DNA of 64,000 nt, from assembly GCA_963666315.2 (NCBI GenBank), contig CAXXHG010000043.1, positions 544,001-608,000 on the forward strand, read 5' to 3'. The position numbers were made by a program, and so were the translations under genes. The notes under the pieces were generated by a model that searched no databases, was not told the origin of the DNA, and saw nothing but the letters and a program-made list of their open reading frames with translations. Of the stretch, positions 5,767 through 30,565 are shown piece after piece. Position 1 is the first letter of the stretch; each line of letters opens with the position of its first letter. The stretch is from Candidatus Binatia bacterium (lineage in GTDB: Bacteria > Desulfobacterota > Binatia > Bin18).

Positions 5767-6438
5767 ATGAAAGGTAAAAAAACAGATCCAGCCGCATCGG
5801 CTGCTCACAATCCAGATCTTTCCTCTGGCCTCACCCGACGCTCATTTCTGAAAGGCGCCGGGGTTGGGACGGCCGGCCTGAGCGCGCTGCACTTCTCACC
5901 CCTTGTTACACAGGTGGAAGACAGACCCGAGATCCCGCCTCTACTCGGGCCGTCTCCCGTACCTGTGAGACTTGAGGTCAACGGCCGGACCTATACCGTC
6001 AACGTTGAACCTCGGCTGACCCTGGCCGACGTCTTACGTGATCATCTCGACCTGACCGGCACGAAAGTCATTTGTGACCGCGGGGCGTGCGGAGGCTGTA
6101 CCGTTCTGCTCGATAACGAGCCCGTTGTCTCGTGCATGCAGCTGGCCATTGCAGCGCAAGGCAAATCTATCCGAACGGTCGAAGGGTTAGCCCAGGGCGC
6201 AGAACAGCTTGATCCGCTGCAGGAGGCCTTTATTACCCATGACGCTCTGCAATGTGGTTTCTGTACACCCGGCATGCTGATGAGTTGTCGGGCGCTGCTG
6301 GATCGAACACGGCAACCCACGCTGGACGAAATAAAAACAGCCGTGAGCGGTAATCTGTGCCGGTGTGGAACCTATCCGCATGTGTTTGCGGCCGTGCTGG
6401 CAGCGTCGGGCCAAGAGCCGAATCTGGTGAAAGAATAA
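5767..6438 (+). CDS. Xanthine dehydrogenase family 2x[2Fe-2S] subunit with Tat signal (PaoA-like)
   Basis: TRRSFLKGAG twin-arginine motif; CDRGACGGCTV, QCGFCTPG, NLCRCG. Confidence 0.92.
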   Translation: MKGKKTDPAASAAHNPDLSSGLTRRSFLKGAGVGTAGLSALHFSPLVTQVEDRPEIPPLLGPSPVPVRLEVNGRTYTVNVEPRLTLADVLRDHLDLTGTKVICDRGACGGCTVLLDNEPVVSCMQLAIAAQGKSIRTVEGLAQGAEQLDPLQEAFITHDALQCGFCTPGMLMSCRALLDRTRQPTLDEIKTAVSGNLCRCGTYPHVFAAVLAASGQEPNLVKE

Positions 6439-6441
6439 AGC

Positions 6442-8835
6442 ATGGCGCGCAAAGTCACACTCCGGGTCGGCTACCAGAATAATCTCAGCTCAGAAACACG
6501 GACCATCCCGGATGACGAACCGTTGCCGTGGGATGCTACAACCGAACTCCGTGTTGTGGGGAAGCCGGTTCCGCGGGTTGATGCCCGCGCCAAGGTGACC
6601 GGCCAAGCAAAATACACGCATGACGTGAAGCTGCCGGGCATGTTGTATGGGGTAATTGTCCGTTCGCCATACGCCGCCGCTGGGATTCAGTCGATTGACA
6701 TAGCAGCGGCGGAAGACCTACCTGGCGTGCGTGCTGTCTATGTGCTGGACCGCAGACGTGTACGCTTTCAGGGGCATGAAGTGGCGGCCATTGCAGCCGA
6801 CACCCCAGAGCAAGCCGAGGATGCCGCGCGCGCGATTGAGGTTGCCTATGCGCCCGGCCCGTTTGTCGTAGATTTTGAGATGGCCATGCGCGCAGACGCA
6901 CCCGTCGTTATGGAGGGCGGGCGCGCAGCTGCAGGCGGTCGCGTCCGGGTCCAAGGCGGCATTCGACTCGTCGCCGCTGCCTGGGCGGACGACGGGCCAA
7001 AACAAAACAGCAATGTATTTGGGCCAGCCAAGCGATCCCTGTTTGGCTCAAATCGAGGCGACGTGCCCCATGCGGTCCAAATTGCCGATGAGGTTATTGA
7101 ACAAGAGTTCCGCACGCCTGTTCAAACCCATAGCTGTCTTGAGACGCATGCGGCGGTTGCCTACTGGGAAGCGGGTCGTCTGATTGTCCATTGCGGTGCA
7201 AAATCCGTCACCAAGGCCAGAGCCGAGCTGGCCGATTATTTCGGCCTGTCCCACACGCAGGTGCACGTCGTCAACACGTTTATTGGCGGGCATTTTGGAA
7301 CCAAGTCGTCCAGTCTGCCCTATGCGGCGCTTGCCGCGCGGCTGGCCAAACAAACTGGGCGACCGGTAAAGATCGCTCTCTCTCGCAAAGACGAACATTT
7401 GGTCGGTGGTAATCGGCCCCAGAACCGCATGCAGGTCCGCGTGGCGGGTATGCGTGACGGGACCCTGGCGGCCGTTGAGTTAACAAATTACGGCTCTGCC
7501 GGTGCGGGCTTTGGCGCTGGGGCGTCCGGGCCGTTTTTCAGCATCTATGACTGCGTGCATGTGCGTGCTGCCGATTACGATGTACTCATGAACACCGGCC
7601 CGAGCTGTGCGTTCCGGGCTCCAGGCCATCCCCAGGGTGCATTTGCTCTGGAAGTCGCGATTGACATGCTGTGCGCACGATTAGGCTATGACCCGGTTGA
7701 ATTCCGCCTCCGCAACAGTTGTGAACGTACCCCGTGGCGGGCCGAAGAGCTGCGGATTGGTGCCGAGCGTATGGGCTGGCACGACCGCCGAGACCCCATG
7801 CCGGCAGCACAAGACGGTCCGATCAAGCGCGGCATCGGAGTGGCTAATAGCGTCTGGTATAGCGTGTACAGTCCCGGGGCACAGGTCGAGGTCCAGGTGA
7901 ACAAGGACGGCAGCGTCATTGCCTTGACCAGCACCTCGGCACCTGGCGCCGGCTCACGCACGGTGATTGCTCAAGCGATTGCGGAAGAGCTGGGTTTGGA
8001 ACCGCATCAGATCGACGTACGTCTGTCGGATTCCGACTATCCGTACTCGCCAGCTCCAGGCGGCAGCAGGCTGACGTCGACCGTCACCCCGCCCGCGCGC
8101 CAGGCTGCCTACCGGGTCAAACAGAGACTCTTGTCCTATGCTGCGCGCAAACTTGAGGTAGGACCGGATACCCTGAGCCTTCAGCCTGGAGGCATGGTCG
8201 TATCGCAGTCCGGAAAACGGTTGACCTGGGCTGAAACTTGTGGCCTCCTGCCTGGAGGCAAGACGGTCGCCCTGGGCGAACGGGCTGAAGATTATAGCGG
8301 TCCGTCTGTGTCCTTCTCGCGCATCTCTATGGGCCAGGATCTGATAGCTGGCGTCCAGTTTGCCGAAGTCACGGTTGATGAGCGGATCGGCCAGGTGCGT
8401 GTTGACAAGATTGTCGCCGTTCAGGACTGTGGCCGCGTCTTCAATCCGCTGTTGGCGGAAAGCCAGCTCCAGGGTGGAATTATTAATGCCCTGAGCTTTG
8501 GTTTATTTGAGGAACGGGTGATGGACGGGCTGGAAGGCCGGATGCTGAATCCGGACTTTCTCTTCTATAAGATTGCCGGCCCACGTGAGATGCCGCAGCT
8601 TGATACGGTTTTCCTGAACGTATACCACGGGCAGACCAATACGGACGCCCGCAATTTGGGTGAGCCTGCCAAAGTTGCCACTATCGCAGCAGTGGTGAAC
8701 GCTATCTACAACGCCACGGGCGCGTGGGTCACACAACTGCCGATCACTCCAGGCCGTGTACTCGCTGCGCTTGCCGAGCGTGACCGTGCCTTAGAGGCGA
8801 ACGTCCGTGCGTCTAAAGCACGGGCCCGCGCATAG
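6442..8835 (+). CDS. Xanthine dehydrogenase family molybdopterin-binding subunit (PaoC-like)
   Basis: PRVDARAKVTG, GGHFGTK, AFRAPGHPQ, QDCGRVFNP, LGEP catalytic Glu. Confidence 0.92.
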   Translation: MARKVTLRVGYQNNLSSETRTIPDDEPLPWDATTELRVVGKPVPRVDARAKVTGQAKYTHDVKLPGMLYGVIVRSPYAAAGIQSIDIAAAEDLPGVRAVYVLDRRRVRFQGHEVAAIAADTPEQAEDAARAIEVAYAPGPFVVDFEMAMRADAPVVMEGGRAAAGGRVRVQGGIRLVAAAWADDGPKQNSNVFGPAKRSLFGSNRGDVPHAVQIADEVIEQEFRTPVQTHSCLETHAAVAYWEAGRLIVHCGAKSVTKARAELADYFGLSHTQVHVVNTFIGGHFGTKSSSLPYAALAARLAKQTGRPVKIALSRKDEHLVGGNRPQNRMQVRVAGMRDGTLAAVELTNYGSAGAGFGAGASGPFFSIYDCVHVRAADYDVLMNTGPSCAFRAPGHPQGAFALEVAIDMLCARLGYDPVEFRLRNSCERTPWRAEELRIGAERMGWHDRRDPMPAAQDGPIKRGIGVANSVWYSVYSPGAQVEVQVNKDGSVIALTSTSAPGAGSRTVIAQAIAEELGLEPHQIDVRLSDSDYPYSPAPGGSRLTSTVTPPARQAAYRVKQRLLSYAARKLEVGPDTLSLQPGGMVVSQSGKRLTWAETCGLLPGGKTVALGERAEDYSGPSVSFSRISMGQDLIAGVQFAEVTVDERIGQVRVDKIVAVQDCGRVFNPLLAESQLQGGIINALSFGLFEERVMDGLEGRMLNPDFLFYKIAGPREMPQLDTVFLNVYHGQTNTDARNLGEPAKVATIAAVVNAIYNATGAWVTQLPITPGRVLAALAERDRALEANVRASKARARA

Positions 8836-8855
8836 TGTAAAGTCAGGAGAAGCGG

Positions 8856-9902
8856 ATGCAGCGTTTTGCCTACACTCAGCCTCATACGCTTGCTGCCGCA
8901 ACCGCGGTGTTGGCCCAGTATCCAAATGGCACGATTAAGGCTGGTGGGGTGGATCTGCTCGATCTGCTCAAAGAGCGACTGGTCACTCCAGAAATAGTTG
9001 TTGATATTAGCCAGGTACCCGAGTGCCAGGGGATACGTCTTGACGCGGACACCGGAGCTTTACGTATCGGGAGTCTCACAACCTTTACCCAGCTTGCCGC
9101 CTCTGCTGTGGTCCAGGAGCAGTGGCCCGCGCTGGCCCAGGTCGCCGGTGGGGCAGCGACCCCGCAAATCAGAAATCAGGCTACTCTTGGTGGAAATCTG
9201 TGTCAGCGCCCACGCTGTTGGTATTTCCGGCAAGAGGATTATCCATGCCTCAAGAAAGGTGGCCAGCAGTGCTTTGCGCTGGAAGGCGACAATCGTTCTC
9301 ATGCGATCTTTGCTAACCAGACCTGCGCCATGACCCATCCCTCGGGCGCTGCCGTGCCCCTGTTGGCTTATGCGGCGTCTGTGCACGTCATTGATCCAAA
9401 AAAAGGCGGACAGGAGCGGCTGATTCCGCTTGCAGACTTTTTTCTCAGCCCGGAACAGGACGTACGGCGGGAAAATGTCTTGACCTCTGGCGAGGTCATC
9501 ACTGCCATTAGGGTGCCACGTCCGGCTCCAAAAACGGGCAGTGTCTATCTTAACCTGAAACACAAACAATCGTTTGACTGGCCTATAGTAGAAGCTGCCG
9601 TGGTCCTCGTGCCGTCGGCGCGCCAGTCCGACAGCCGGCCAGAAAATATTGTGCAAGAAGCGCATATCGTGCTTGGCTCGGTCGCTCCGACCCCTCTCCG
9701 CGCGGCGCGCGCAGAAGCGGTATTGCAAGGAAATCTGATTACTGAGGCGATTGCCGATCAGGCTGGACAGGCTGCAACACAAGGAGCGGCACCGCTTGCT
9801 CTGAATGGAGAAAAAATACCATTGCTTGCCGAGCTGGTGCGTCGAGCTGTACTCAAGGCAGCCGGCAAGTTTCCATATGCTGATGAGGTCATGTCGTTAT
9901 GA
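8856..9902 (+). CDS. Xanthine dehydrogenase family FAD-binding subunit with [4Fe-4S] motif (PaoB-like)
   Basis: KAGGVDLL, PQIRNQATLGGNLCQRPRCWYFR...C...C motif typical of PaoB/YagS. Confidence 0.92.
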   Translation: MQRFAYTQPHTLAAATAVLAQYPNGTIKAGGVDLLDLLKERLVTPEIVVDISQVPECQGIRLDADTGALRIGSLTTFTQLAASAVVQEQWPALAQVAGGAATPQIRNQATLGGNLCQRPRCWYFRQEDYPCLKKGGQQCFALEGDNRSHAIFANQTCAMTHPSGAAVPLLAYAASVHVIDPKKGGQERLIPLADFFLSPEQDVRRENVLTSGEVITAIRVPRPAPKTGSVYLNLKHKQSFDWPIVEAAVVLVPSARQSDSRPENIVQEAHIVLGSVAPTPLRAARAEAVLQGNLITEAIADQAGQAATQGAAPLALNGEKIPLLAELVRRAVLKAAGKFPYADEVMSL

Positions 9903-10470: not shown

Positions 10471-11495
10471 GAGAAATCCCTGGACTGCCTCATCGAGGTC
10501 GGCATCGTCATCAACAATGATGGCATTCTTGCCTCCCATTTCGGCAATCACTTTTTTAATACCACGCTGACCCTGGGTGGTTTGGGCGGCCAGGGCGTTG
10601 ATGCGTAAACCCACCTCACGTGATCCGGTGAAAGCAACAATATTGATAAGCGGATGGGTGACAAGGTATTCCGCGACCTCCTCGCCCAGGCCGGGTAGAT
10701 AGGACAATACTCCGGGTGGCAGGCCCGCGCTCCGAAAGATGTCCATCAGCTTGGCCGCAGTAACGGGCGTCTGCTCGGCGGGTTTCATGATCACGCTATT
10801 CCCGGTCACTAACGCCGCAGCAGCCATGCCGGTCAGGATTGCCACAGGAAAATTCCACGGCGCAAGAACAGCCGCACTCCCGCGGGCTTGATAAAAATAG
10901 GCGTTGGCCTCGCCGGGCTCGTCATCGAGCGGCTGGCCTGCCGCGAGGCGGCGCATTTCGTGGGCGTGATACACCAGAAAATCAATAGCCTCACACACAT
11001 CCGCATCGGCCTCGCGCCAGGGCTTGCCTGCCTTGAGCACTTCCCAACCTGCAAGCTCCAGCCGCATCTCGTCAGCAGCCCGCAGCAGGACGTCTATCCG
11101 CTCTTCGACCGGAGTCGCGCGCCAAGCGGGAAAGGTCTGCTGTGCCGCTTGGACTCTCCGCTCCCGCGCAACCTGGCCAATGATGGTTTCTGGATGCGAA
11201 GGATTCCGAGAGATCAGGGAGGTGTCGGTGGTGCTGGGCTCGTCGTTAATAATCAACGGGTACGAGCGTCCACATTGTTGCTGCACGGATTCAAGTGCCG
11301 CCTGGAATTGGCGCTGGTTTTCCGCTTGTGCGAAATCCAGCAGGGGTTCCTTCTGAAATCCGCCATGCACCAGTCCAGAATTCTCTCGTCCCACCACGCG
11401 AAGTGCAAGGCGGATGGGAAGTCTGCCTTAAGATGGGTAAAGAGCTCACGACCAATTGTTTGGATCTGGTGTTCGATTTCGTCGGAGAAAGCCAT
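10471..11495 (-). pseudogene. putA: PutA (proline dehydrogenase/P5C dehydrogenase) remnant
   Basis: N-terminus MAFSDEIEHQIQTIGRELF...WWDERILDWCMAD is joined directly to the ALDH part FQKEPLLDF...APWNFP...KPAEQT...FTGSREVG...AEMGGKNA. The PRODH domain and C-terminus are missing. Confidence 0.85.
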
Positions 11496-15469: not shown

Positions 15470-15904
15470 CTCCCACCATTCTGATTCAAAATACCTGCTC
15501 CAACTATGCCTTTTCTCAGGAGGCTTTTACAGATCACCAAGGTTCTCTTTTGTGTGAAGCACAAAAGAGGGGCTTAGTTCAGCCAAGTTTCAGGACTATT
15601 GGGGAAACCACCACACGCCTGGTTCCAACATGCCGGAACTTGATTGATATGTACAGTGTCACGTATTGCTGGAAACGTCTGCCAGCTACGACGGCGTGGA
15701 TGAGCTATGGTGCAAGGATGTTGCGGCCTGTGAGCGCTGTTGGAGTTCTGTCAACAGTTTGGCCAAGACCTGGTCCGCTGAAAGGGTGCCGTGAGTAACT
15801 TTCTCCAGGAACGCCTTTTTTGTCAAACGGTGGGTTGCCTTGAGCGTAGCCATACTTCCCTCACTGGTTCTGACAATGTAGCCGACGTAATCTGCTGAGG
15901 CCGC

Positions 15905-17887
15905 TCACCCTGAGCTTGCCGAAGCCTGTCCTGAGCGTAGCCGAAGGGGGCGAATCCGCTCTTCAATCGCGCGGAAGACGGCGTCGGTGCACCCTTCTAC
16001 AGTCTGATCGACTGTGGTCAGGCGTAAGGCCGGATTTTCAGGCTGCTCGTAGGGAGAAGAGATGCCGGTGAATTCCGGAATCTCACCCGCGCGCGCCTTT
16101 GCATACAGCCCCTTTACATCCCGCTCCTCACACACCTCAAGTGGCGTATCTACGTACACGTCAAAAAAGCGCTCGGGCCCAATGACCTCGGCTGCATTCT
16201 GACGATCAGCCAGAAACGGTGAGATGACCGGGACAAGCACGATCAGGCCGGCCTGATTAAACAGCTGGGCGATCTCGGCGATGCGCCGAATATTCTCGCG
16301 TCGGTCGTCTGTAGAAAACGCCAGATCACGGTTGAGGCCGAAGCGTACATTGTCTCCGTCGAGACGATAGACGTGAAAGCCTGCAGCATGCAGGCGCTGT
16401 TCGAGCTGCTCGGCAATCGACGATTTGCCGGAACCGGATAAGCCGGTCAGCCAGACGGTCAGCGCACGTTGACCGAGTGCACTCTCCCGATCCGTTACTG
16501 AAATAAGACCCGTCTCTTCACGAATATGGGCTGATTTCTGAGCATCGACTTGAACCGGCGCCATACGCTGCAGGACTTGCTCTGGCATCCGGTCCAAGAC
16601 CATACCGGCGCCAACCGTGTTGTTCGTCAGGCGATCAATCACAATGAACGCTCCGCAGGTCCGATTCTTCCGGTAGGGGTCGAACGCGACCGGTTTTTCC
16701 AACGTAAATGCACACCGCCCGATTTCATTCAGCGCGAGCTGGTCAGCGCTCTCTCGATGCAGCGTATTAATATTCATCCGATAGCGCACGTCGGTGATCA
16801 CCCCAGGCGCTTTGTTGGTCGTGTGTTTGATGAAGTATTGTTTGTCCAGCCGTAGCGGCTCTGCGGCCATCCACACCAGCATGGCTTCAAAACTCTTGGC
16901 TTCCATGGGCACATTGTTGGGATGGACCAGCATGTCGCCCCGACTGATATCGATTTCGTCCTCAAGGGTCAGGGTCACGGCCAGCGGGGGCATAGCCTGC
17001 GCAATCTCTCCTTCAAAGGTGTGAATTGCCTTGATCCGGCTCGTTTGGCGGGACGGAAAAACCATTACCTCGTCGCCTGGACGTACGATCCCGGAAGCCA
17101 CCGTCCCACAATAGCCCCGAAAATTGAGATTGGGTCGATTCACGTATTGGACCGGAAAACGAAAGTCGATCAGATTGACATCCGAGGCAATATAGACGTT
17201 CTCCAGCATATGCATGAGCGGACTGCCCTCATACCAGGGCATGTTTTCGCCGTGATGGACAACGTTGTCGCCTTTGAGCGCAGCCATGGGCAGGAAGTGT
17301 ACGTCACTGAGTTCAAGCTTGGCCGCAAAGGCGGCATAGTCTGCCACAATACGATCAAAGGTCTCTTGGCTGTAATCAACCAGATCCATCTTATTGACCG
17401 CAACGACAATATGTTTGATGCCTAACAAAGAGGCGATAAAGCTGTGGCGACGGGTCTGGGTCAGGACTCCCAGTCGGGCATCAATCAAGATGATGGCCAA
17501 GTCACACGTGGAGGCACCGGTCGCCATATTGCGCGTGTACTGCTCATGGCCCGGGGTATCGGCAATGATGAATTTGCGTTTGGCCGTCGAAAAATAGCGA
17601 TAGGCAACATCGATCGTAATCCCCTGCTCACGTTCGGCTTTCAGTCCGTCCGTTAATAGGGCGGGATCAAAGTCCATGTCTGTCGTGCCGTAGCGTACCG
17701 AGTCTTTTTTCATCGCCTCAAGCTGATCCTCATAGATCATCTTGGAGTCATATAGCAGGCGACCGATGAGCGTACTCTTGCCGTCATCCACACTGCCGCA
17801 GGTAAGAAAACGCAACAGGTCTTTGCGTTCATGTTGGGCCAGATAAGCTTCAATATCCGTCACGATTAAGTCAGATTTATGGGACAT
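15905..17887 (-). CDS. cysNC: Bifunctional sulfate adenylyltransferase subunit 1 / APS kinase
   Basis: [36 protein letters not shown]; C-terminal [25 protein letters not shown]. Confidence 0.96.
15907..15948. repeat. REP-like 'cctgagc..gycgaagg' palindromic units at the cysNC 3' end
   Basis: ccctgagcttgccgaagc followed by cctgagcgtagccgaagg; partial related units near 15838 and 38762. Confidence 0.5.
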
Positions 17888-17908
17888 ATTGCAATACCCA
17901 ATAGCGTT

Positions 17909-18865
17909 CTAGAAATAGCCTTCCTTTTTCTTCTCTTCCATCGAGCTGGACTGATCAAAATCGATCACGCGGCCCTGGCGTTCAGACTTGGTGGCTAAAA
18001 GCATCTCCTGGATAATCAGCGGCAGGGTGTCTGCCTCGGATTCAATCGCCCCGGTCAGCGGATAGCACCCGAGCGTACGGAAACGCACCTTCTTCATCTG
18101 CGGCCGTTCGCCGGGAAGGAACGGCAGGCGGTCATCGTCGACCAGAATAAGCACCCCATCCCGCTCCACAACCGGCCGTTTCTTGGCGAAATAGAGCCCT
18201 ACGATAGGAATGTTCTCTAGATAGACGTACTGCCAGACATCCAGTTCAGTCCAGTTCGACAGGGGAAAAACCCGAATGCTTTCTCCTTTGTCTACAGTCG
18301 CGTTGTATAAATTCCATAGTTCCGGGCGTTGGTTCTTCGGATCCCAGCGATGATTGCGATCTCGGAACGAATACACCCGTTCTTTGGCCCGGGATTTCTC
18401 CTCGTCACGCCGCGCCCCACCAAAGGCCGCATCAAACTCATATTTGTCGAGCGCTTGTTTGAGCGCTTGCGTCTTCATGACATCGGTATGCTTTTTTGAA
18501 CCGTGGCTAATAGGCCCGATTCCTGCTTTGACGCCGTCTTGGTTGATATACACGATGAGGTCGAACCCCAGCTCTTTTTTGACGTAATTGTCTCGAAACG
18601 TAATCATGTCCCGGAATTTCCAGGTCGTATCAATATGCATGAGCGGAAAAGGCGGCTTGCCTGGGGCAAACGCTTTACGGGCCAAATGCAACATGACGGC
18701 AGAGTCCTTGCCGATCGAATACAACATGACAGGATTGTCAAACTCGGCCGCAACTTCCCGAATGATGTATATGCTTTCTGCCTCAAGGCATTTTAAATGC
18801 GTGAGAGCATAGAGATTTTTTTTCCCCGAATTCTTTTCAAGCAAACTCTTTTCCGTCAAACTCAT
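17909..18865 (-). CDS. cysD: Sulfate adenylyltransferase subunit 2
   Basis: [50 protein letters not shown]. Confidence 0.96.
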
Positions 18866-18992
18866 TTCGGTATAACTCTCCAATTTCTCAGCTCCCTTCT
18901 CGACCAGACCGGACTGGATATTTTCATTATACGCAAACACAGAAATAAAACAGAGACACACAGACCACAGACTTATCCAGATTCTGCCAGAT

Positions 18993-19808
18993 TCATACTG
19001 GACGAGCCGAACCGGGCCGGCACAAGGAACACTGGGGGTCTTTCTCTACAATATGCTCAGTAAAATGAAAGGCTGGGAATGTACACTGCAGGAGTTTTGG
19101 TACGCTTTCTTGATCGGCGGCAACGATCACTTTGAGCGCTTCCGTCGTTTGCTGCGCCCCCATGAATAACGCCGGGGCAGCATCTGTTGACTCGGCTCCC
19201 CGAGCTGGCTCTGCATGGAGGAGATCAGGGACTGGGAAATCGGACGAAAGACAGCGTAGGCACGGCCAGTCCGGCTTGTCGCCCCGAAAGACGAATAGAT
19301 ATGCCTGTCCCGGCACGAGGTGCGCCCAAATGAACGGCTTCCGGGCCACATAACAGGCGTCGTGCAGGACCGCTGTGGCACTTAACACGAGGTCATAGTG
19401 TTGAACCAGCTGTTCCGGTCGTAGAGCGGCCTCTTCATCGTCCCCTCCGATGTGGGTGATAATGGTGCAATCAGGATTCAGGCGCGTGAGCGTCTTGATC
19501 CGCTCATCCTGCTCATTCTGGTCTGATTCACTCGCATCCTCAGCCAAAGCCGAAAAGACCGTGCGAGCTGTTCCAGAGGTACCAGAGGTGACAGATGTAC
19601 GAGATGTATTAGATGTGACAGATTGCGGGCGGATAATGCCGATAGTCCCAACCCCGGCCGCTGCAAGATACAGGAGAGCGGTTGCCTCCAGCAGCCCGTC
19701 AGTGTGGACGAGAACTCGGCTGCGTAGGATTTTTTCCTGCCCTTTTCCCCCACACTGGGGCAAGATGATCTGTCGGCTATAGCGTTCGATCTGGGCGTCA
19801 GAGAGCAT
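18993..19808 (-). CDS. ThiF/MoeB family protein, degenerate adenylation site
   Basis: ERYSRQIIL...GQEKI and two CxxC (CLRC, CSLC) retained. GxGGLG is replaced by HTDGLL, SNLxRQ by a Thr/Ser repeat, and DGTDN is absent. Confidence 0.8.
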
Positions 19809-19811
19809 AGA

Positions 19812-20048
19812 CTATTCGATGACGTTCTTTTCGATCGGCTCGACGGTGACACCTTTTTCTCGCAGCCAGGCTACGGCTTGGTCGATATCCGCCTGCTTCC
19901 CTTCGACTTCCAGTGCGACCAGTCCCATCTCGCCGGAAACATTCGCCCCGCGGATATTCGTCACCAGATGAAACTGCTGCCCAACGAGGTAAATAAGGGG
20001 CTCTTTGATAAGCGCTGTGGGGTACGTCAAATAGAATTTCTCAGTCAT
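19812..20048 (-). CDS. Stand-alone NIL-domain protein
   Basis: LTYP...IKEPLIY...TNIRGANV...LEVEG...AVAWLREKGVTVEPI; ATGA overlap with cysM. Confidence 0.85.
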   Translation of the reverse strand: MTEKFYLTYPTALIKEPLIYLVGQQFHLVTNIRGANVSGEMGLVALEVEGKQADIDQAVAWLREKGVTVEPIEKNVIE

Positions 20049-21049
20049 GCCATTCCCCGTGCCTCAGCGTCTGCCCGGCGGAGATCAAAATCTTTCCAGC
20101 CAACCCACAGATTCGTGCTGAGGTATTTATCTCCAAAATCAGGGAAGAGCGTCACCACCATGCCGGCATCGATTTCACGTGCAATCTTCAGCGCCGTCCA
20201 CATCGCAGCACCGGAAGACTGACCCACTAAGAGACCCTCTTCCCGGACGAGTCGATACACAGTCTCATACGCATCCTCGGTCGAAACACTGATCTTGTCG
20301 TCAAGCTGCTCTTCGTGGTAAATGCCGGGCACGATAGAGCTGGCCATGTGCTTGAGTCCTTCCAAGCCGTGCAACGCATCATCCGGCTCCACGCCGACAA
20401 TCTGGACGTCGGGATTGTGCTCCTTGAGATACCGACCGGTCCCCATCAGCGTCCCGCCGGTGCCCATGCCCGCCACAAAGTGCGAGATTTTTTCCTGTGT
20501 TTGCCACCACAGCTCTGGGCCGGTCGTCTCGTAGTGGGCGAGAGAATTGGCCGGATTAAAGTATTGATCGGGTTTGAAATAACGCTCCGGATTTTCGTGT
20601 AACACCGCACGACACTGTTCGAGAGCGCCGTCCGAACCCTCCATAGGGTCACTGAAAATCATCGTAGCACCATACGCGGCAATCATTTTCTTGCGCTCGA
20701 TGCTGACGTTGGCTGGGATGACCAGCGTGACAGGATATTGGAGCACTGCCCCAACCATAGCCAAGGAAATGCCGGTGTTACCGGAGGTCGAGTCTAGAAT
20801 GACCTTGCCCGGCGTCAACGCTCCGGTCTCAATTCCCTCCTGGACCATGCGTAGCGCGGGTCGATCTTTGACCGAACCACCGGGATTAAAGCCTTCGAGC
20901 TTGGCAAAGATACTCACGCGCGGAGAGATGCCCGTGGTAATCCGGGTAATCTCTAAAAGCGGCGTATCTCCAATCAAATGAAGGACAGACGGGACCCGCA
21001 GCAGTCCGGACTGGGGCGGCCCCTCGGAACGTCCAGGCAAAAGGGACAC
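20045..21049 (-). CDS. cysM: PLP-dependent cysteine synthase (CysM-like)
   Basis: KLEGFNPGGSVKDR, STSGNTG, QYFNPAN, GMGTGGT, GQSSGA, DFGDKYLS. Confidence 0.88.
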   Translation of the reverse strand: MSLLPGRSEGPPQSGLLRVPSVLHLIGDTPLLEITRITTGISPRVSIFAKLEGFNPGGSVKDRPALRMVQEGIETGALTPGKVILDSTSGNTGISLAMVGAVLQYPVTLVIPANVSIERKKMIAAYGATMIFSDPMEGSDGALEQCRAVLHENPERYFKPDQYFNPANSLAHYETTGPELWWQTQEKISHFVAGMGTGGTLMGTGRYLKEHNPDVQIVGVEPDDALHGLEGLKHMASSIVPGIYHEEQLDDKISVSTEDAYETVYRLVREEGLLVGQSSGAAMWTALKIAREIDAGMVVTLFPDFGDKYLSTNLWVGWKDFDLRRADAEARGMA

Positions 21050-21052
21050 TTC

Positions 21053-21328
21053 TCACCCTCCGGCAATGGCAGGCACAACGGACACTTCGTCTCCGTCTTT
21101 AACTGGAGTCTCGAGATTATTGAGAAAACGAATGTCTTCGCCATTGACAAAAATGTTGACAAAGCGGCGCACCTGTCCCTCCTCATCACACAGCCGCTCC
21201 TTCGTACCGGGATGGTGACTTTCCATATCATCAATTAGCACCCCAACCGTGGCTCCATCGGCCGAGACCACTGCCTCACCGCCGGTCAAGCGACGCAGTG
21301 GAGTTGGGATACGTACCTGAACACTCAT
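21053..21328 (-). CDS. Ubiquitin-like sulfur carrier (MoaD/ThiS/CysO family)
   Basis: MSVQVRIPTPLR...RFVNIFVNGEDIRFL...VPAIAGG ending in free Gly-Gly; GAGG RBS. Confidence 0.93.
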   Translation of the reverse strand: MSVQVRIPTPLRRLTGGEAVVSADGATVGVLIDDMESHHPGTKERLCDEEGQVRRFVNIFVNGEDIRFLNNLETPVKDGDEVSVVPAIAGG

Positions 21329-21404
21329 ATGAATTACCTCCTCGTTCGGGTTCACTATTGCGAGTCCACTGTTGCGGTTTTGGTGTGGTCTGACAATCAC
21401 CCTG

Positions 21405-22688
21405 TTAATGCAGCTCTTCCGGATTTACCTTCAGCTGTTCGCCTTTCTGCTCGGATGACAGAGAGGCATACAACTGATCAAAGTCGGCTAATCGGGCCTC
21501 GATAAGCAACGGCTGCCGCACCTGATCCAGCACGGCCTCAATAGTTTTATACCCATTGCCCGTAATACAAATCACAATGGACTCATCCCGAGGAATGCGG
21601 CCTTGCTCAATAAGTTTTTTCGTCACGGCAACAGTCGTACCGCCAGCCGGTTCCGTAAAAATTCCCTCAGTCTGGGCAAGCAGTTGGATGCCTTCGATGA
21701 TCTCGGCGTCCGTCGCCGCTTCTCCCCAGCCACCTGAGTCACGCACGGCGCGCAGAACGTAATATCCATCGGCGGGGTTGCCTATCGCAATCGACTTGGC
21801 AATCGTCTTGGGCTTCACCGGGACAATCAGGTCGGTCTCATTGTGCAAGGCCTGTATAACCGGCGCACATCCTGCGGCCTGGGCGGTATAAATTTTCGGC
21901 CGCGGACCACTCTCCATCAATCCAACCTGCTGGAGTTCTTCAAAGGCTTGGGCGACTTTGGGCAGAATCGTGCCACCCGCGGTGGGAACAACGACATGCT
22001 GGGGAAACCGCCAGTCCAGCTGTTCAACAATTTCAAACCCGTAGGTCTTCGCGCCTTCCGTGTAATACGGCCGGAGATTGATATTGGCAAACGCCCAGCC
22101 ATATTTGTCAGCGATCTCGCTGCACAAACGGTTGACATCGTCGTAGTTTCCCCGGATCGCAACCGTACACGGACCATAGATCGTTGTGCCTACAACTTTT
22201 CCTTGTTCGAGATCGGCCGGAATAAAGATGAAACAGCGCAGTCCGGCGCGCGCCGCATGGGCCGAGACCGAGTTGGCTAAATTCCCGGTGGAAGCACAGG
22301 AGACGGTCTCAAAGCCAAACTCGATAGCCTTTGAAATCGCAATCGAGACGACCCGGTCCTTATAGGAAAAGGTAGGATGATTGACCGAATCGTCCTTCAC
22401 ATAGAGTTCTTTTACCCCTAAATGGGCAGCCAGACGATCTGCTTTGACGAGCGGAGTAAAGCCACTATGGAGGCCGACCTGCGGCTCTCCAGCGACCGGG
22501 AGTAGTTCTCGATAACGCCACAGCGAGGCGGGGCGCGAGGCGATAATCTCTCGCGAGAGCTGCTGCCGAATACTGGCGTAGTCATATTGAACCTCGAGCG
22601 GTCCAAAACACATCTCACAGACGTGGAGCGGGCTCAGGGGGTAGGCGTGTCCACACTCGCGGCAGGTCAGACCGGTAATTGTGTCCAT
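21405..22688 (-). CDS. thrC: Threonine synthase-like PLP enzyme
   Basis: N-terminal CxxC...CxxC zinc ribbon, PTFSYKDR, CASTGNLANS, EPAGG, ITGNGYK; GAGG RBS before ATG 22688. Confidence 0.85.
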   Translation of the reverse strand: MDTITGLTCRECGHAYPLSPLHVCEMCFGPLEVQYDYASIRQQLSREIIASRPASLWRYRELLPVAGEPQVGLHSGFTPLVKADRLAAHLGVKELYVKDDSVNHPTFSYKDRVVSIAISKAIEFGFETVSCASTGNLANSVSAHAARAGLRCFIFIPADLEQGKVVGTTIYGPCTVAIRGNYDDVNRLCSEIADKYGWAFANINLRPYYTEGAKTYGFEIVEQLDWRFPQHVVVPTAGGTILPKVAQAFEELQQVGLMESGPRPKIYTAQAAGCAPVIQALHNETDLIVPVKPKTIAKSIAIGNPADGYYVLRAVRDSGGWGEAATDAEIIEGIQLLAQTEGIFTEPAGGTTVAVTKKLIEQGRIPRDESIVICITGNGYKTIEAVLDQVRQPLLIEARLADFDQLYASLSSEQKGEQLKVNPEELH

Positions 22689-22717
22689 TTCGTATTCCTC
22701 TCGTATCTCATCATTGC

Positions 22718-23479
22718 TTATTGTCCCGCGACAGCCATTGCTTGTCGCGCCTGTGGCTGCAGAGTCGTAATAGTCGGCCTCGTTCCGCACAGGGGACAGC
22801 GGGGGCTGCGGCGGACGCGTACCTCTCGCCAGCGCAACGCCAATGCGTCATATGTCAAAAGGCGGTCGGTGAGGAGTTCCTCTCCCCCGCGTAAATATTT
22901 TACTGCTTCATTGGCCTGCACTATACCCAGGCTGCCCGCTACGCTGCCGAGGATGCCTGCTTCTTGACAGGTTGGAATTTCATCCGGATCAGGTGGGACT
23001 GGAAAAAGGCAGCGTAAGCAGGTCGTGCGCTCGGGTAAGACGGTTAATGTCTGCCCATGGAATTGTACGATCCCGGCATACGAAAACGGCTTTTTCAGCA
23101 GTACTGCTCCATCATTAATAAGAAACTTCGTTTCTAGGCCATCCGTCCCGTCGATGATAAAATCATACTCAGCGAAAAGGCCGGCCAAATTATTCGCGCT
23201 CAAACGCTGTACATAAGGAACCACAGTGATTGCAGCATTCATACGCTGCAGTTTCTCTTGAGCGGAGCGCACCTTGGGTCGGCCAAGATCGGGAGTAAAG
23301 TGTAAGATCTGGCGTTGCAGGTTCGACAGTTCAACCGTGCCCGGGTCTACTAAACCTATTGTCCCAACGCCGGCCAAGGCCAGTGCGAGCGCGGCGGGAG
23401 AACCAAGCCCACCAACACCAACGACTAAGACCTTGCCGTCCCGAACGCGAGCGTGCCTAGCGCGTTCGACCCTTTCCAT
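22718..23479 (-). CDS. moeB: MoeB/ThiF family adenylyltransferase (E1-like), N-terminally short
   Basis: VVGVGGLG, VELSNLQRQ, IIDGTD, CLRC, TCQEAG, CPLC. AAAGGA RBS and an upstream in-frame TAG show there is no RYSRQ N-terminal helix. Confidence 0.9.
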   Translation of the reverse strand: MERVERARHARVRDGKVLVVGVGGLGSPAALALALAGVGTIGLVDPGTVELSNLQRQILHFTPDLGRPKVRSAQEKLQRMNAAITVVPYVQRLSANNLAGLFAEYDFIIDGTDGLETKFLINDGAVLLKKPFSYAGIVQFHGQTLTVLPERTTCLRCLFPVPPDPDEIPTCQEAGILGSVAGSLGIVQANEAVKYLRGGEELLTDRLLTYDALALRWREVRVRRSPRCPLCGTRPTITTLQPQARQAMAVAGQ

Positions 23480-23521
23480 ACCAGATCCTTTCGTGGCTGG
23501 TCGTGACTAACGGCGGAAAGC

Positions 23522-23552
23522 AAAAAGCCCCTTCCCGATAAGAAAGAGGCTG
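23522..23552 (-). terminator. Intrinsic terminator, expression platform of the SAM-I riboswitch
   Basis: agcctctttc-ttatc-gggaaggggct followed by tttt; its cttatc can alternatively pair with the P1 3' strand gataag (antiterminator). Confidence 0.8.
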
Positions 23553-23567
23553 ATGAACTCAGATCAC

Positions 23568-23690
23568 TCTCCTTATCTCTCCCTCTCATGTGAGGGTGGG
23601 AATTAGCACCATATTTGTCTCTTCTTGGGAAGGGACAAAAGGTTGCTGTGGCGTCACTGGGCCAGTCCCTCAGCCACTCTCGATAAGGTT
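23568..23690 (-). ncRNA. SAM-I riboswitch (S-box)
   Basis: cttatcgagag-tggctgagggactggcccagtgacgcca-cagcaacc...ggtgctaattcc...gagagataag matches the S-box P1-P4 consensus. Confidence 0.93.
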
Positions 23691-23742
23691 CTATATATCG
23701 CCTGAATAGTCCTGTGTATTCCTCCACATAGGAATTTCTGTG

Positions 23743-23771
23743 AAGCTACCGAATACTCCCTAAGGTGTCAA
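23743..23771 (-). promoter_or_regulatory. Sigma70-type promoter of the sulfur operon
   Basis: TTGACA-N17-TAGCTT ~50 nt upstream of the riboswitch; a downstream palindrome attcct-N6-aggaat (23718-23735) may be an Rrf2/CymR-type operator. Confidence 0.6.
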
Positions 23772-23807
23772 TATATCTTTGTTATTCCGGCTACTCTGAC
23801 ATGAAGG

Positions 23808-25302: not shown

Positions 25303-26973
25303 TTAAGGAGGAAAGGTCTTCCAATCCAGCCACAGACGTCCGTCTCGATAGATACGTCCGGCAGGAGCGAGGCCGGTCGAATCGTCCTGAATTGCTGTGT
25401 GGACGTTGACCGTAGAGGCAAGAAGCGGATCACGGCCCAGGACAAAGCTCTGCTCACGGACGAGCACTATAGCGGCCTTATTCAGCAGGCGTGCGCGCTT
25501 GCGCGACGGCACAATCAGAAAAGCGATGTCTCGATCCCCACCCGGAGCCGCACGTCGAACCTGAGCCGTATCGAGCTTCCCTTCCCTTCCATCCTTTCCA
25601 TACTGAAAAAAACGTTCCAGTACTTCGGTATTGGCTCGAAACCCATCTCCGCCTTGCACCCGCTGAAAATAGGTCAAAATCTCCGGCTCCTGATGTCCGG
25701 CTTGGGGAACATCCGGGATCCCGTGTACAGACTGGTGTCTCCAGCCGGCAATACCCGGAACTTTACGCGCAAAAGCAAACGTTTGGTCAACCGTCACACC
25801 CAGCGAGGTATGGCAGCCCATACAGAACAAATGCTCTTCTTCAGTTTGCAGCCGTAGTTGACCGGCTGCATCCTCAATAAATCCTTGAAACTGCCAGCCA
25901 AAGACATTCCGCAAACCCACCAGGGGCGAGCCAGGAAAGAGCGGCGAGAGGCCCTCTTCTTTTTCGTCCCGCTCATGTTCATACGCCCGGAGCCGAGCCC
26001 AATCGTCAAGCCACTCGACTTTACGAGCGTAGCGGACTTCTTTCATCCGAGTGGATAGCAGAGAAGGAACATCCGTATCGATATAGCGTACCGTGTGTAA
26101 GAATTCCGTGCCTTGTGGATACAGATAGCGGTGGACTGCTATCTCTTGCGCCGCTCCAATATAGTGGGAGGGCAGTGTCCGGAGGTGCATAACAGCCGGC
26201 TGCATTATGCCATCTCCATCGAGGTCTTTCCCCGCTAGCTTCTCATTGAGCGGCTCGACTTCACGATCAATATCTTTCATCAAGGGATCAACGGCTATCG
26301 CCGCCTCAAGAATGGCCAGATTGAGTTTATAAATCGGACGTGATTGTCGACCGTACGTATCGGTCTGAAACGTACGTGGCAGGCGAATCATCACGTCGTC
26401 CGTACTGCCGTTCGTTGGCCAAAAGGTGCCCGGAAACGGCTTATACCGAATCGCCCGCCACCCACTGCCGTCCCGAGCAAAGCCTTCCCCGTCAAAGCCT
26501 TGGCGAAAGTCGAGGTCGGGCACATAACCCGGATAGTCCTGCCGGTTGTCTAAGGCAGCCCGCAGCGGGGTATAGTTATCCGCTCGGATATAGTCCAGCG
26601 CTTCAGCGTCAGAAATGTTTTCGATAGCTGCACGCCGGTCAATAAAAAGGTTTTGCCAGCGATTGGTCCGAGAAAAATCGCTAAAAGTATAGGCTGCCTG
26701 GAGAGGCCAATCGGTGAAACGATTCTCGCCGAGCGGCTGGGTGTGACACGTCCAACACGGATTGGATATGCCCGCAGTCCGCGTATAGCACTGCGGCGGG
26801 ACGGTTGCTTGTGTGTTGACGGTCTTCCCAATGCTCGCGCGCGCAACTGCGAGGGGATCGTACGCGTGGCTGGCTGGATACGTTGTGGCATTGTCTGGAC
26901 CACGACGCAGGAGTGTGATGAGAGCGGCAACCAGTACACATCCAAGCACGGTAGGCAACAGAACTCTTTCCAT
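25303..26973 (-). CDS. Membrane-anchored hypothetical protein with two CxxCH heme-c motifs
   Basis: N-terminal hydrophobic anchor; PPQCYTRT, NPCWTCH and FCMGCH; start chosen after AAAAGAACAA. Confidence 0.7.
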   Translation of the reverse strand: MERVLLPTVLGCVLVAALITLLRRGPDNATTYPASHAYDPLAVARASIGKTVNTQATVPPQCYTRTAGISNPCWTCHTQPLGENRFTDWPLQAAYTFSDFSRTNRWQNLFIDRRAAIENISDAEALDYIRADNYTPLRAALDNRQDYPGYVPDLDFRQGFDGEGFARDGSGWRAIRYKPFPGTFWPTNGSTDDVMIRLPRTFQTDTYGRQSRPIYKLNLAILEAAIAVDPLMKDIDREVEPLNEKLAGKDLDGDGIMQPAVMHLRTLPSHYIGAAQEIAVHRYLYPQGTEFLHTVRYIDTDVPSLLSTRMKEVRYARKVEWLDDWARLRAYEHERDEKEEGLSPLFPGSPLVGLRNVFGWQFQGFIEDAAGQLRLQTEEEHLFCMGCHTSLGVTVDQTFAFARKVPGIAGWRHQSVHGIPDVPQAGHQEPEILTYFQRVQGGDGFRANTEVLERFFQYGKDGREGKLDTAQVRRAAPGGDRDIAFLIVPSRKRARLLNKAAIVLVREQSFVLGRDPLLASTVNVHTAIQDDSTGLAPAGRIYRDGRLWLDWKTFPP

Positions 26974-27044
26974 TTGTTCTTTTGACCGGAGTAAAAATAC
27001 GGTACAAGGAGGTATACTCATACACGAAAGCGAGTTACTGAGTC

Positions 27045-29899: not shown

Positions 29900-30130
29900 T
29901 ATCAGAACTAGTTCCCCCCATAGCATGTGAAGCCCCGGCTTCTATCGCGCCGCCTGTTATGTCAGCGCTGCGCTGTATAGAAGACGGGAACCCTTTGACC
30001 GAGCTATATGTGAATCTCCTAGCCCGAGCGATTGACAAGGACCGCATCGGAGAAGCACACCCCGCCTTCGTTAAGATTATAGAACAACTCTCCCCGGATG
30101 AAGCCCTTATCATGTTAAAGTACGTGCTTT
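29900..30130 (+). pseudogene. Abi-alpha (DUF4393) family fragment
   Basis: [14 protein letters not shown]...ELYVNLLARAID...AHPAFVKIIEQLSPDEALI. Confidence 0.65.
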
Positions 30131-30203
30131 CTGTCCAACTTGCCCTGTTGCCCGTCTCACTCTGGAACACGATCGAGAATTGTGTTCCCGTCCTCTTGTT
30201 TCC

Positions 30204-30565
30204 TTACTTGCGGGGAGGCTTCGGAACCGTGCGTGAAGTCGGCATTCGTGAATCTATATCAGCCAGCCCCGACAAGATGATGGGGGCCGGTCGGGAAAGT
30301 CCGCGACCAAGCGGAGCTGGCCCCCCAGAGCTTCGACATAGCCGCGTAGCGTTGAAAGCAATAGATCCGTCCGTTTTTCCAACCGGGATACCCCCTCTTG
30401 TCCAATGCCCAGGGATTCCGCCATCCACTGTTGTGTGAGTTGATGGGCTTCGCGGAGATCCCGTAACGACATCTCTTCCGCAATTAACTCCGCCGCCAGG
30501 GCTGCCACGGCTTTCTGTTCATCCGCTGAGAGGCGGTTGATCATGTCTTTGAGTTGTACTGTCAT
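30204..30565 (-). pseudogene. XRE-family HTH antitoxin (HigA-like), C-terminal frameshift
   Basis: LRDLREAHQLTQ...LGIGQEGVSRLEKRTDLLLSTLRGYVEALGG; after DRPP the expected IILSGLAD tail lies in another frame. Confidence 0.75.

Follow-up and report, generated by a model that had tools for sequence, protein, structure and literature searches.

In Mycobacterium tuberculosis, CysO, CysM, MoeZ and Mec make up a pathway of cysteine synthesis that proceeds by way of a protein thiocarboxylate. The roles of the components of the MetO-MetM-MoeZ-Mec pathway of Streptomyces are set out in Table 2 of GapMind 2026 (PMC13759103; like PMC12355090, PMC13139853 and 10.1101/2023.09.26.559546 below, this paper is drawn on in excerpt). 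MoeB and ThiF are symmetric homodimers with two active sites (PMC12355090), in which each subunit's N-terminal helix offers a trans-acting Arg to its neighbour (PMC13139853). The eukaryotic activating enzymes (E1s) SAE1/SAE2 for SUMO and NAE1(APPBP1)/UBA3 for NEDD8 combine an inactive with an active module (PMC12355090). Reviews and the Bil structure paper describe prokaryotic MoeB, ThiF and Cap2 as symmetric homodimers and state one exception, BilD (PMC12355090, 10.1101/2023.09.26.559546). This E1 of Type II Bil systems is a single IAD-AAD-CYS chain whose inactive domain gives Arg9, and all other known bacterial E1-like proteins are stated there to be homodimers (10.1101/2023.09.26.559546). 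In yeast, the synthesis of cyclic N6-threonylcarbamoyladenosine (ct6A) involves Tcd1 and Tcd2, of which the inactive Tcd1 gives Arg59 to Tcd2 and is needed for Tcd2 stability (PMC13139853). Here, a 64,000-nucleotide stretch of a Candidatus Binatia bacterium genome (GCA_963666315.2, contig CAXXHG010000043.1, positions 544,001 to 608,000; hereafter the window) is considered, in which one sulfur-metabolism operon encodes two ThiF paralogues, an active copy at 22718..23479 and a degenerate copy at 18993..19808, both on the minus strand. These two proteins probably form a heterodimer of one active and one inactive subunit, whether obligate or preferred, that has the geometry of a MoeB/ThiF dimer and would activate a sulfur carrier for cysteine and homocysteine synthesis. 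A literature search of main texts, outside subscription journals, found no account of two ThiF genes paired in a sulfur-carrier pathway; the word "heterodimer" is absent from Iyer et al. 2006 (PMC1779556), where "inactive" refers to E2-like domains.

The original prediction, made from the sequence of the window alone, held that the two proteins have undergone reciprocal motif loss, and this is borne out by Pfam and by alignments to MoeB and ThiF. The active copy (253 aa; PF00899, 233.8 bits against a curated cut-off of 28.1 bits, which both proteins exceed) carries GVGGLG, SNLQRQ, RPKV, DGTD, CLRC, TCQEAG and CPLC, aligned with MoeB Gly38-43, Arg73, Lys86, Asp130, the Zn cysteines and Cys187 (residue names following PMC12355090 and PMC13139853). 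It is collinear with MoeB and ThiF and shows no inserted catalytic-Cys domain or ubiquitin-fold domain in Pfam. Its alignment begins only at residue 29 of E. coli MoeB (1jw9_B) and residue 25 of ThiF (1zud), so that the first ~24-28 residues, including the RY(N/S)RQ helix with the trans-acting Arg (MoeB Arg14 / ThiF Arg11), are missing. The start of the gene is fixed by its context (23486..23509, minus strand), as had been claimed from the ribosome-binding site and the upstream stop: an in-frame TAG at 23507-23509 lies ten codons upstream, and AAGGA at 23486-23490 stands 6 nt before the ATG at 23479. Among 35 distinct loci from the family of the window's genome and its sister family, none has R[YF]xR[QH] in any forward frame between 400 nt upstream of the active copy and its Gly loop. 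A substitute Arg in the protein's own N-terminus, for which VERARH had been named as a candidate, was rejected: this region is variable and without a conserved Arg, 2 of 20 orthologues have no Arg at all before the first strand, and the sole recurrent basic positions match MoeB Lys30 and Arg33, which are also found in canonical enzymes.

The degenerate copy (271 aa; PF00899, 73.6 bits in two stretches) presents the opposite pattern. It aligns to MoeB 4-247, with its ERYSRQ-bearing stretch on MoeB MLRYNRQIIL; the codons of E8-R9-Y10-S11-R12-Q13 occupy 19770..19787 (minus strand), and R12, the equivalent of MoeB Arg14, is invariant in 21/21 members. Both Zn-site CxxC pairs are likewise invariant, the first (CLRC, C183-C186) at 19251..19262 and the second (CSLC, C260-C263) at 19020..19031, both on the minus strand. 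TDGLLE replaces MoeB GLGGLG, and the equivalents of Asp62, Lys86, Asp130 and Cys187 are gone, such that the protein is predicted to be unable to bind ATP. In place of the lost SNLQRQ..Lys segment lies a Ser/Thr-rich insert encoded by 9-nt tandem repeats (19573..19623, minus strand; ~4-4.6 copies, 70-77% matches). HMMER aligned residues 66-71 (SNTSRT) on MoeB SNLQRQ, with S, N and R coinciding; this likeness is treated as coincidental, and the Arg73 equivalent is counted as lost too, because the string falls inside the repeat insert, is modelled with a predicted local distance difference test score (pLDDT) below 50 and is not conserved in orthologues. The AlphaFold2 model places residues 64-77 as a whole below that value, as predicted disorder, while the full model reaches a pLDDT of 81.3 and a predicted template-modelling (TM) score of 0.83. 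Its best fold match is MoeB (1jw9_B, 2.5e-16; TM score 0.76 normalised to target), followed by Uba4, ThiF and, lower down, SAE1 (1y8q_A, 8e-11).

Relatives of the degenerate copy share its losses. A word-indexed protein search returned 5348 matches at E <= 0.001, of which the best 120 span E-values from 2e-178 to 1.6e-46; all 21 relatives aligned from these best 120 show the identical degeneracy pattern in an alignment that also held the window's active copy. In a second alignment, of the window protein and 20 others, M1, L2, D4, R9-Q18, G20, G21, G23-E25, L28 and both CxxC pairs are invariant. Database names for these relatives are "molybdopterin-synthase adenylyltransferase" or "adenylyltransferase/sulfurtransferase". 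As a side observation, in the close orthologues P0046, P0050, P0073, P0042 and P0025 the crossover region beyond the first CxxC holds near-identical Pro/Arg-rich insertions of ~30-60 aa (alignment columns ~320-380), which look like an in-frame inserted element. Since helix and active site belong to separate genes, a dimer of the two proteins should hold at most one complete active site.

Reciprocal loss was predicted to co-occur across genomes, and it does. The loci read comprise 54 further regions retrieved around the matches together with L001-L007. Loci with an N-truncated active copy number 56 including the window, or 54 distinct ones once two sequence-identical duplicates are counted only once. 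In 50 of these 54, a helix-bearing degenerate partner (RY[SG]RQ, catalytic motifs lost) follows downstream in the same operon; in the other four the contig ends before the partner's position, one of them showing the first 149 profile positions of the partner at its end, and in none of the 54 does the contig run on without a partner. Complementarity is found in every orthologue tabulated: first copies keep GxGGLG, SNL[QH]RQ, Lys, DxTD, both CxxC and [TS]CQEAG without RYSRQ, and second copies retain RYSRQ and CxxC with the remaining motifs lost. Operons retain the pair whether they encode CysM, ThrC or the two together, and irrespective of a NIL-domain gene.

In a class-wide sample of 401 genomes, a profile of the degenerate copy found matches at E <= 1e-40, every one above 200 bits, in 52 of the 54 genomes from the window's family; the two without a match have completeness values of 65% and 84%. 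The only genome sampled from a sister family matched as well. ThiF matches that start at Pfam position 7-21 occur in 25 of 26 genomes belonging to another family of the class, and the one exception is 85% complete. Across a phylum-wide sample of 401 genomes, scores above 300 bits occurred only in the window's genome and one other; the profile also matches canonical ThiFs at 110-173 bits, so the phylum tally of 105/401 genomes is not a count of pairs. The 28 next-best phylum loci (L089-L116), all from other families, have ThiFs that without exception retain RYSR[QH], 27 of them with an ordinary GxGGLG loop, and RY[SA]R[QH] is kept in all controls, which are these 28 ThiFs and three single-copy genomes of the same class. 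A wide contig scan gave 80 loci; of the 12 read, only L001-L007 are orthologues of the degenerate copy, and L008-L012 were rejected as ordinary MoeB/ThiF proteins caught through the common word RYSRQIILP. Named relatives are metagenome-assembled genomes (MAGs) titled Candidatus Binatia. The closest public relative of the operon (L001, 82-91% protein identity) is the one exception: its MAG contig bears the title "uncultured Enterobacteriaceae", which is probably a taxonomic error.

The degenerate copy is under purifying selection and clearly not neutral. In 54 locus pairs with dS of 0.05-1.5 in both genes (of 595 pairs among 35 loci), the ratio of non-synonymous to synonymous substitution rates (dN/dS, or omega) has a median of 0.28 in the degenerate copy as against 0.16 in the active one; the former lies between 0.14 and 0.38 among the 40 pairs listed, and the reading frame is open in all loci examined. 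Regional values, pooled over 13 close pairs that are not independent of one another, fall to 0.089 in residues 1-30 and 0.143 in residues 31-60, and rise to 0.40 in residues 61-105 (the former SNLQRQ..Lys segment) and 0.44 in residues 181-215 (first Zn site and crossover). Constraint peaks exactly where the trans-acting helix would sit. The notion that the second copy is unconserved or drifting, which had been named at the outset as a point that would speak against pairing, is contradicted by these figures, at 0.28 for the whole gene and 0.09 in the Arg helix.

Modelling of the complex, which was confined to the active-degenerate heterodimer, points the same way. As the original prediction anticipated, the pair stands well clear of its controls: the interface score ipSAE is 0.92 in three runs against 0.00 for the best of three controls, with contact agreement of at least 87% and partner pLDDT of at least 78. 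At the mark applied, 58 of 80 solved complexes pass, as do 2 of 110 mismatched pairs, a calibration that is rough because own alignments were used. The modelled contacts join residues 8-13 and 15-19 of the degenerate subunit to residues 51-58 and 61-63 of the active one, including SNLQRQ, and the interface excludes the active subunit's N-terminus. Within the degenerate copy, predicted-interface residues have an omega of 0.159 versus 0.304 for all others, and invariant columns are enriched there (19/47 versus 38/224; odds ratio 3.3, p = 7e-4).

The mechanism that we favour begins with assembly of the two ThiF paralogues into a 1:1 heterodimer arranged as in MoeB/ThiF dimers, to which the degenerate subunit would contribute, in trans, its N-terminal helix (ERYSRQ, with the MoeB Arg14 equivalent) and half of the dimer interface. 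This heterodimer would adenylate the CysO-like carrier at its single site, and the adenylated carrier would be converted into a thiocarboxylate, from which sulfur would pass to CysM for cysteine and to a ThrC/MetM-like enzyme for homocysteine. These carrier-dependent steps would run downstream of sulfate activation by CysD and CysNC. Neither ThiF protein has a rhodanese domain in Pfam from which a sulfur donor could be named. As to origin, the operon would have had two ThiF genes, the original and a further one, each of which lost parts that the other retained.

Stages that could mark such a course are found in related genomes. Several of the L089-L116 loci are ThrC-carrier-NIL-ThiF-CysM operons with one ordinary ThiF, an arrangement that is therefore probably ancestral. 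Class members with a single copy, at L144, L145 and L147, encode a full-length ThiF. At L140, two ThiFs (6991-7764 and 10575-11483, both minus strand) flank a ThrC-carrier-CysM-NIL operon; both have RY[SE]RQ, the Gly loop, SNLHRQ, Lys, Asp and the Zn site, the Cys motif being the sole loss of the second, which makes this locus a candidate for the stage before degeneration. L141 combines a first copy without the helix and a half-degenerate second copy, in which GAGAVG is kept alongside TALRRQ and DTAP, and in one other family partly degenerate second copies have loops such as GADVMG or ASSETG. The window's family has the fully complementary pair. Some second ThiFs of the family with these altered loops, a sister family, have decayed to scores of 21-56 bits when compared with the window protein and still start ...ER[YF][SG]RQ (EWFSRQ in L158); shrunken second ThiFs of 209-233 aa are found at L169 (4158-4814, minus strand), where the first CxxC of the Zn site is apparently lost, at L168 (4205-5206, minus strand) and at L157, L158, L162 and L165.

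A quick maximum-likelihood tree places all 22 second copies on one side of a branch (SH-aLRT support 97) and groups the first copies of pair-bearing lineages as a clade (96-97) that is sister to the single-copy class members. The fast-evolving second copies attach deeper, as long branches, and little trust can be placed in where they fall with respect to the first copies. Forcing first and second copies into a joint clade lowers the log-likelihood by 19.3 units, a cost at which the approximately unbiased test does not reject it (p = 0.235, for a group named only once the tree had been seen). In-operon duplication is a plausible origin on this pattern, and the tree may imply that the helix was lost more than once, at nodes that are unstarred. 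Read together, the Binatia lineage could be a living record of a symmetric MoeB-type homodimer turning into an asymmetric active/inactive E1, with each stage extant, a proposal that we hold tentatively and with slightly more doubt than conviction. Its stages would lead from one full-length ThiF to two complete copies in one operon, then to a helix-less first copy with a half-degenerate second, to the fully complementary pair and, finally, to a second copy reduced to little beyond the helix. If the helix was lost repeatedly, E1 dimers would have a repeatable way of degenerating in complementary fashion, an evolutionary ratchet, and the origin of the asymmetry seen in eukaryotic E1s could then be rebuilt experimentally from natural bacterial proteins.

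Several points weigh against an obligate heterodimer that arose in this way. All of its support is computational, and the counted loci and genomes are kin, so that the counts overstate independent support. The passing heterodimer model may reflect likeness to solved MoeB/ThiF homodimers and not binding. No fused active-degenerate protein was found at E <= 1e-20 among proteins of 476-2000 aa, an absence of little weight. In the trees the degenerate copies are not placed beside the active copies of the same lineage, as in-operon duplication would have it, and the far-decayed second copies in part of a sister family could mean a shrinking role. Moreover, the MoeB Arg14 and ThiF Arg11 fingers are reported to be non-essential, and E. 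coli TcdA is without one (PMC13139853, citing Lake 2001 and Nagy 2016). For this reason an active copy that has lost the helix does not necessarily depend on a partner; any such dependence is suggested by co-occurrence and constraint and not by known enzymology. The original claim of an obligate inactive/active heterodimer is supported computationally, each of its expectations that was put to a computational test having been borne out; its basis in a single Arg is weakened by the reported dispensability of the finger (PMC13139853), from which it follows that obligacy is more likely to arise from the missing helix as a piece of dimer and active-site architecture.

Among the alternatives, the one that survives best, though we consider it unlikely, is that the active copy works alone as a helix-less homodimer and the degenerate copy performs a non-E1 task, for instance as an adaptor/chaperone or a Zn-dependent regulator that might hold the carrier, the NIL protein or CysM/ThrC. 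The Arg finger that is dispensable in MoeB/ThiF and missing in TcdA (PMC13139853) would agree with such a homodimer, and the NIL-degenerate-ThiF fusion P0110 and the retained Zn site and C-terminal subdomain of the degenerate copy would agree with a task of that kind. Set against this, the tightest constraint falls on the very helix that reaches the partner's ATP site in MoeB-type dimers (omega 0.089; invariant 21/21), and truncation of the active copy occurs only alongside a helix-bearing second copy; NIL is missing from many pair-bearing loci, and the loss of the helix from the first copy is left unexplained. A further alternative, which we rate as quite improbable, allows both dimer types: the active copy would work alone, and the degenerate copy would be a regulatory subunit tuning activity, stability or the choice of carrier (cysteine versus homocysteine branch), along the lines proposed for yeast Tcd1/Tcd2, for which stabilisation and fine-tuning have been suggested (PMC13139853). 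It shares with the obligate heterodimer the support of the complex model and the interface constraint and could draw on the persistence of the pair with CysM only, ThrC only or both, but the constant placement of both genes in one operon speaks against the subunits being regulated independently. That the degenerate copy is a decaying pseudogene, or that an error of annotation or assembly or a frameshift makes the active copy look N-truncated, is scarcely credible and was rejected, for the 9-nt repeat insert and low-complexity sequence of the window protein are outweighed by open frames in all loci examined, a dN/dS of 0.28 overall and 0.09 at the N-terminus, presence of the gene in 52/54 sampled family genomes, a start fixed by an in-frame stop and a ribosome-binding site, and RYxRQ upstream in 0/35 loci.

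The operon in which the pair is encoded consists of eight tightly packed genes, separated or overlapping by a few bases, which run on the minus strand from 23479 down to 15905, between a BamD/YfiO lipoprotein gene and an ABC-F gene. Next to the active ThiF lies a gene for a ThrC-like pyridoxal-phosphate enzyme with an N-terminal Cys4 ribbon (21405..22688, minus strand; NF006050, 317.8 bits against a cut-off of 303, aligned from residue 35), whose open reading frame (ORF) could start no earlier than 22790 and which matches threonine synthases in the PDB at 2e-56; it is a candidate MetM-like homocysteine synthase dependent on the carrier thiocarboxylate, a role taken from Table 2 of PMC13759103. 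The ThiS/MoaD/CysO-like sulfur carrier follows (21053..21328, minus strand; 91 aa; PF02597, 65.9 bits; earliest possible start 21400), with 4n6e_B (3e-26) and the M. tuberculosis CysO chain 3dwg_C (1e-24) as its nearest solved relatives. Its Gly-Gly end is as originally described; the label of a ubiquitin-like protein, in the sense of a modifier, gives way to that of a sulfur carrier of CysO/MetO type in a cysteine/homocysteine pathway (PMC13759103). Downstream are a CysM-type cysteine synthase (20045..21049, minus strand; TIGR01136 cysKM, 350 bits against a cut-off of 344; 3dwg_A CysM, 2e-63), a 78-aa NIL-domain protein (19812..20048, minus strand; PF09383, 45.9 bits), the degenerate ThiF, the sulfate adenylyltransferase subunit 2 CysD (17909..18961, minus strand; NF009214, 524 bits) and a CysN/CysC fusion of the sulfate adenylyltransferase GTPase subunit and adenosine 5'-phosphosulfate kinase (15905..17887, minus strand; PF00009, PF22594, PF01583). 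The two ThiF genes are 2.9 kb apart with no E2 or deubiquitinase between them; no E2 is present in the operon, all of whose genes are sulfur-metabolism enzymes, and no genome-wide E2 search was made. On separate contigs, the genome has its only rhodanese-MoeB, a 392-aa protein with all motifs (G000:C15; L081:1420-2598, minus strand) that is presumably the housekeeping enzyme, and one Prok-JAB (Mec-like) gene (G000:C37:46081-46455; L171), no JAMM/Mec gene being found inside the operon.

The NIL-domain protein was considered as a dedicated partner of the degenerate ThiF and rejected, as many pair-bearing loci are without it; in other phyla, operons with one full-length ThiF also contain it or a fusion of it to the carrier, so it is not specific to the degenerate protein. 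NIL is fused to a ThiS-like carrier at L108 (2512-3027, minus strand) and L111 (3205-3720, minus strand), in operons of two other families of the phylum, and the 327-aa metagenomic protein P0110 unites a NIL domain and a degenerate ThiF in one chain. It seems to be an old, unexplained component of carrier-dependent Cys/Met operons.

Contigs from four runs labelled as, or possibly, RNA give scattered cover of 15800-23800, including a 213-nt piece over the NIL/degenerate-ThiF junction (19685-19897, 12 differences) and a 177-nt piece within the degenerate ThiF gene (19033-19209); they derive from relatives, may hold DNA, show no transcript structure and are uninformative on expression. Marine sediment and marine metagenome runs (X4-X16) contain 25-41% of the sampled words of 18900-23600, a hint at habitat only. 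Elsewhere in the window, a 572-aa ORF (25303-27021, minus strand) that Pfam leaves unmatched at E <= 1e-5 has two CxxCH motifs (CWTCH, CMGCH) and may encode a novel c-type cytochrome with two haems; three genes at 5767-9902 (plus strand) encode the 2Fe-2S, molybdenum-cofactor-binding and flavin adenine dinucleotide subunits of a molybdoenzyme of the xanthine dehydrogenase / aerobic CO dehydrogenase type; and a 159-aa ORF (29959-30438, plus strand), which covers only positions 38-89 of the 196 of the Abi_alpha profile, is a possible fragment of an abortive-infection gene.

If the proposed heterodimer is correct, asymmetry of the SUMO/NEDD8 E1 type can arise without any link to protein conjugation, in ordinary sulfur metabolism. 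The intermediates extant in related genomes make each step testable with natural proteins. For annotation, the second gene is misnamed as an adenylyltransferase despite its predicted inability to bind ATP, and pathway tools that expect one MoeZ-type enzyme would misread Binatia genomes with the pair. The bacterial parallel of eukaryotic E1 architecture drawn in the original prediction would hold for the two-gene logic, and yields on novelty, for an asymmetric bacterial E1 was already known in BilD (10.1101/2023.09.26.559546). What would be new is a two-gene active/inactive ThiF pair in a sulfur-carrier pathway, the logic of an asymmetric E1 itself being already known.

Compared with known systems, the pair resembles E. 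coli MoeB-MoaD and ThiF-ThiS (1JW9, 1ZUD) in fold, family, Zn site, Gly-Gly carrier and the adenylation chemistry to be expected, and differs from these homodimers in having its helix and active site on different genes. With the CysO/MetO pathways the operon shares a CysO-like carrier (1e-24) with its Gly-Gly end and CysM-type and ThrC-like enzymes encoded together; the activator there is a single MoeZ with a fused rhodanese, whereas here there are two ThiF-only proteins, and a Mec (JAMM) gene is missing from the Binatia operon. In yeast Tcd1-Tcd2, two proteins of the ThiF family form a heterodimer, the inactive paralogue supplying the Arg finger that completes its active partner's site, but this heterodimer belongs to a eukaryotic TcdA-type subfamily with a C-terminal tRNA-binding domain and acts on t6A in tRNA and not on a carrier protein. 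BilD offers the bacterial precedent for inactive and active adenylation modules with the Arg coming from the inactive one, although it is a single chain with a CYS domain that works with an E2 and a deubiquitinase in antiviral defence, in contrast to two small proteins of sulfur metabolism. SAE1/SAE2 and NAE1/UBA3 correspond to the Binatia pair in being encoded by two genes, and the motif complementarity, co-occurrence and complex model of the Binatia proteins would fit an inactive and an active adenylation module joined, as in these E1s, in one pseudo-symmetric unit with a single site per dimer. Unlike these eukaryotic E1s, the pair has no catalytic-Cys domain insertion, no ubiquitin-fold domain and no E2 in its operon, its active subunit measures only 253 aa, its expected product is a thiocarboxylate in place of a thioester relay, and its asymmetry would have originated independently, within one bacterial class.

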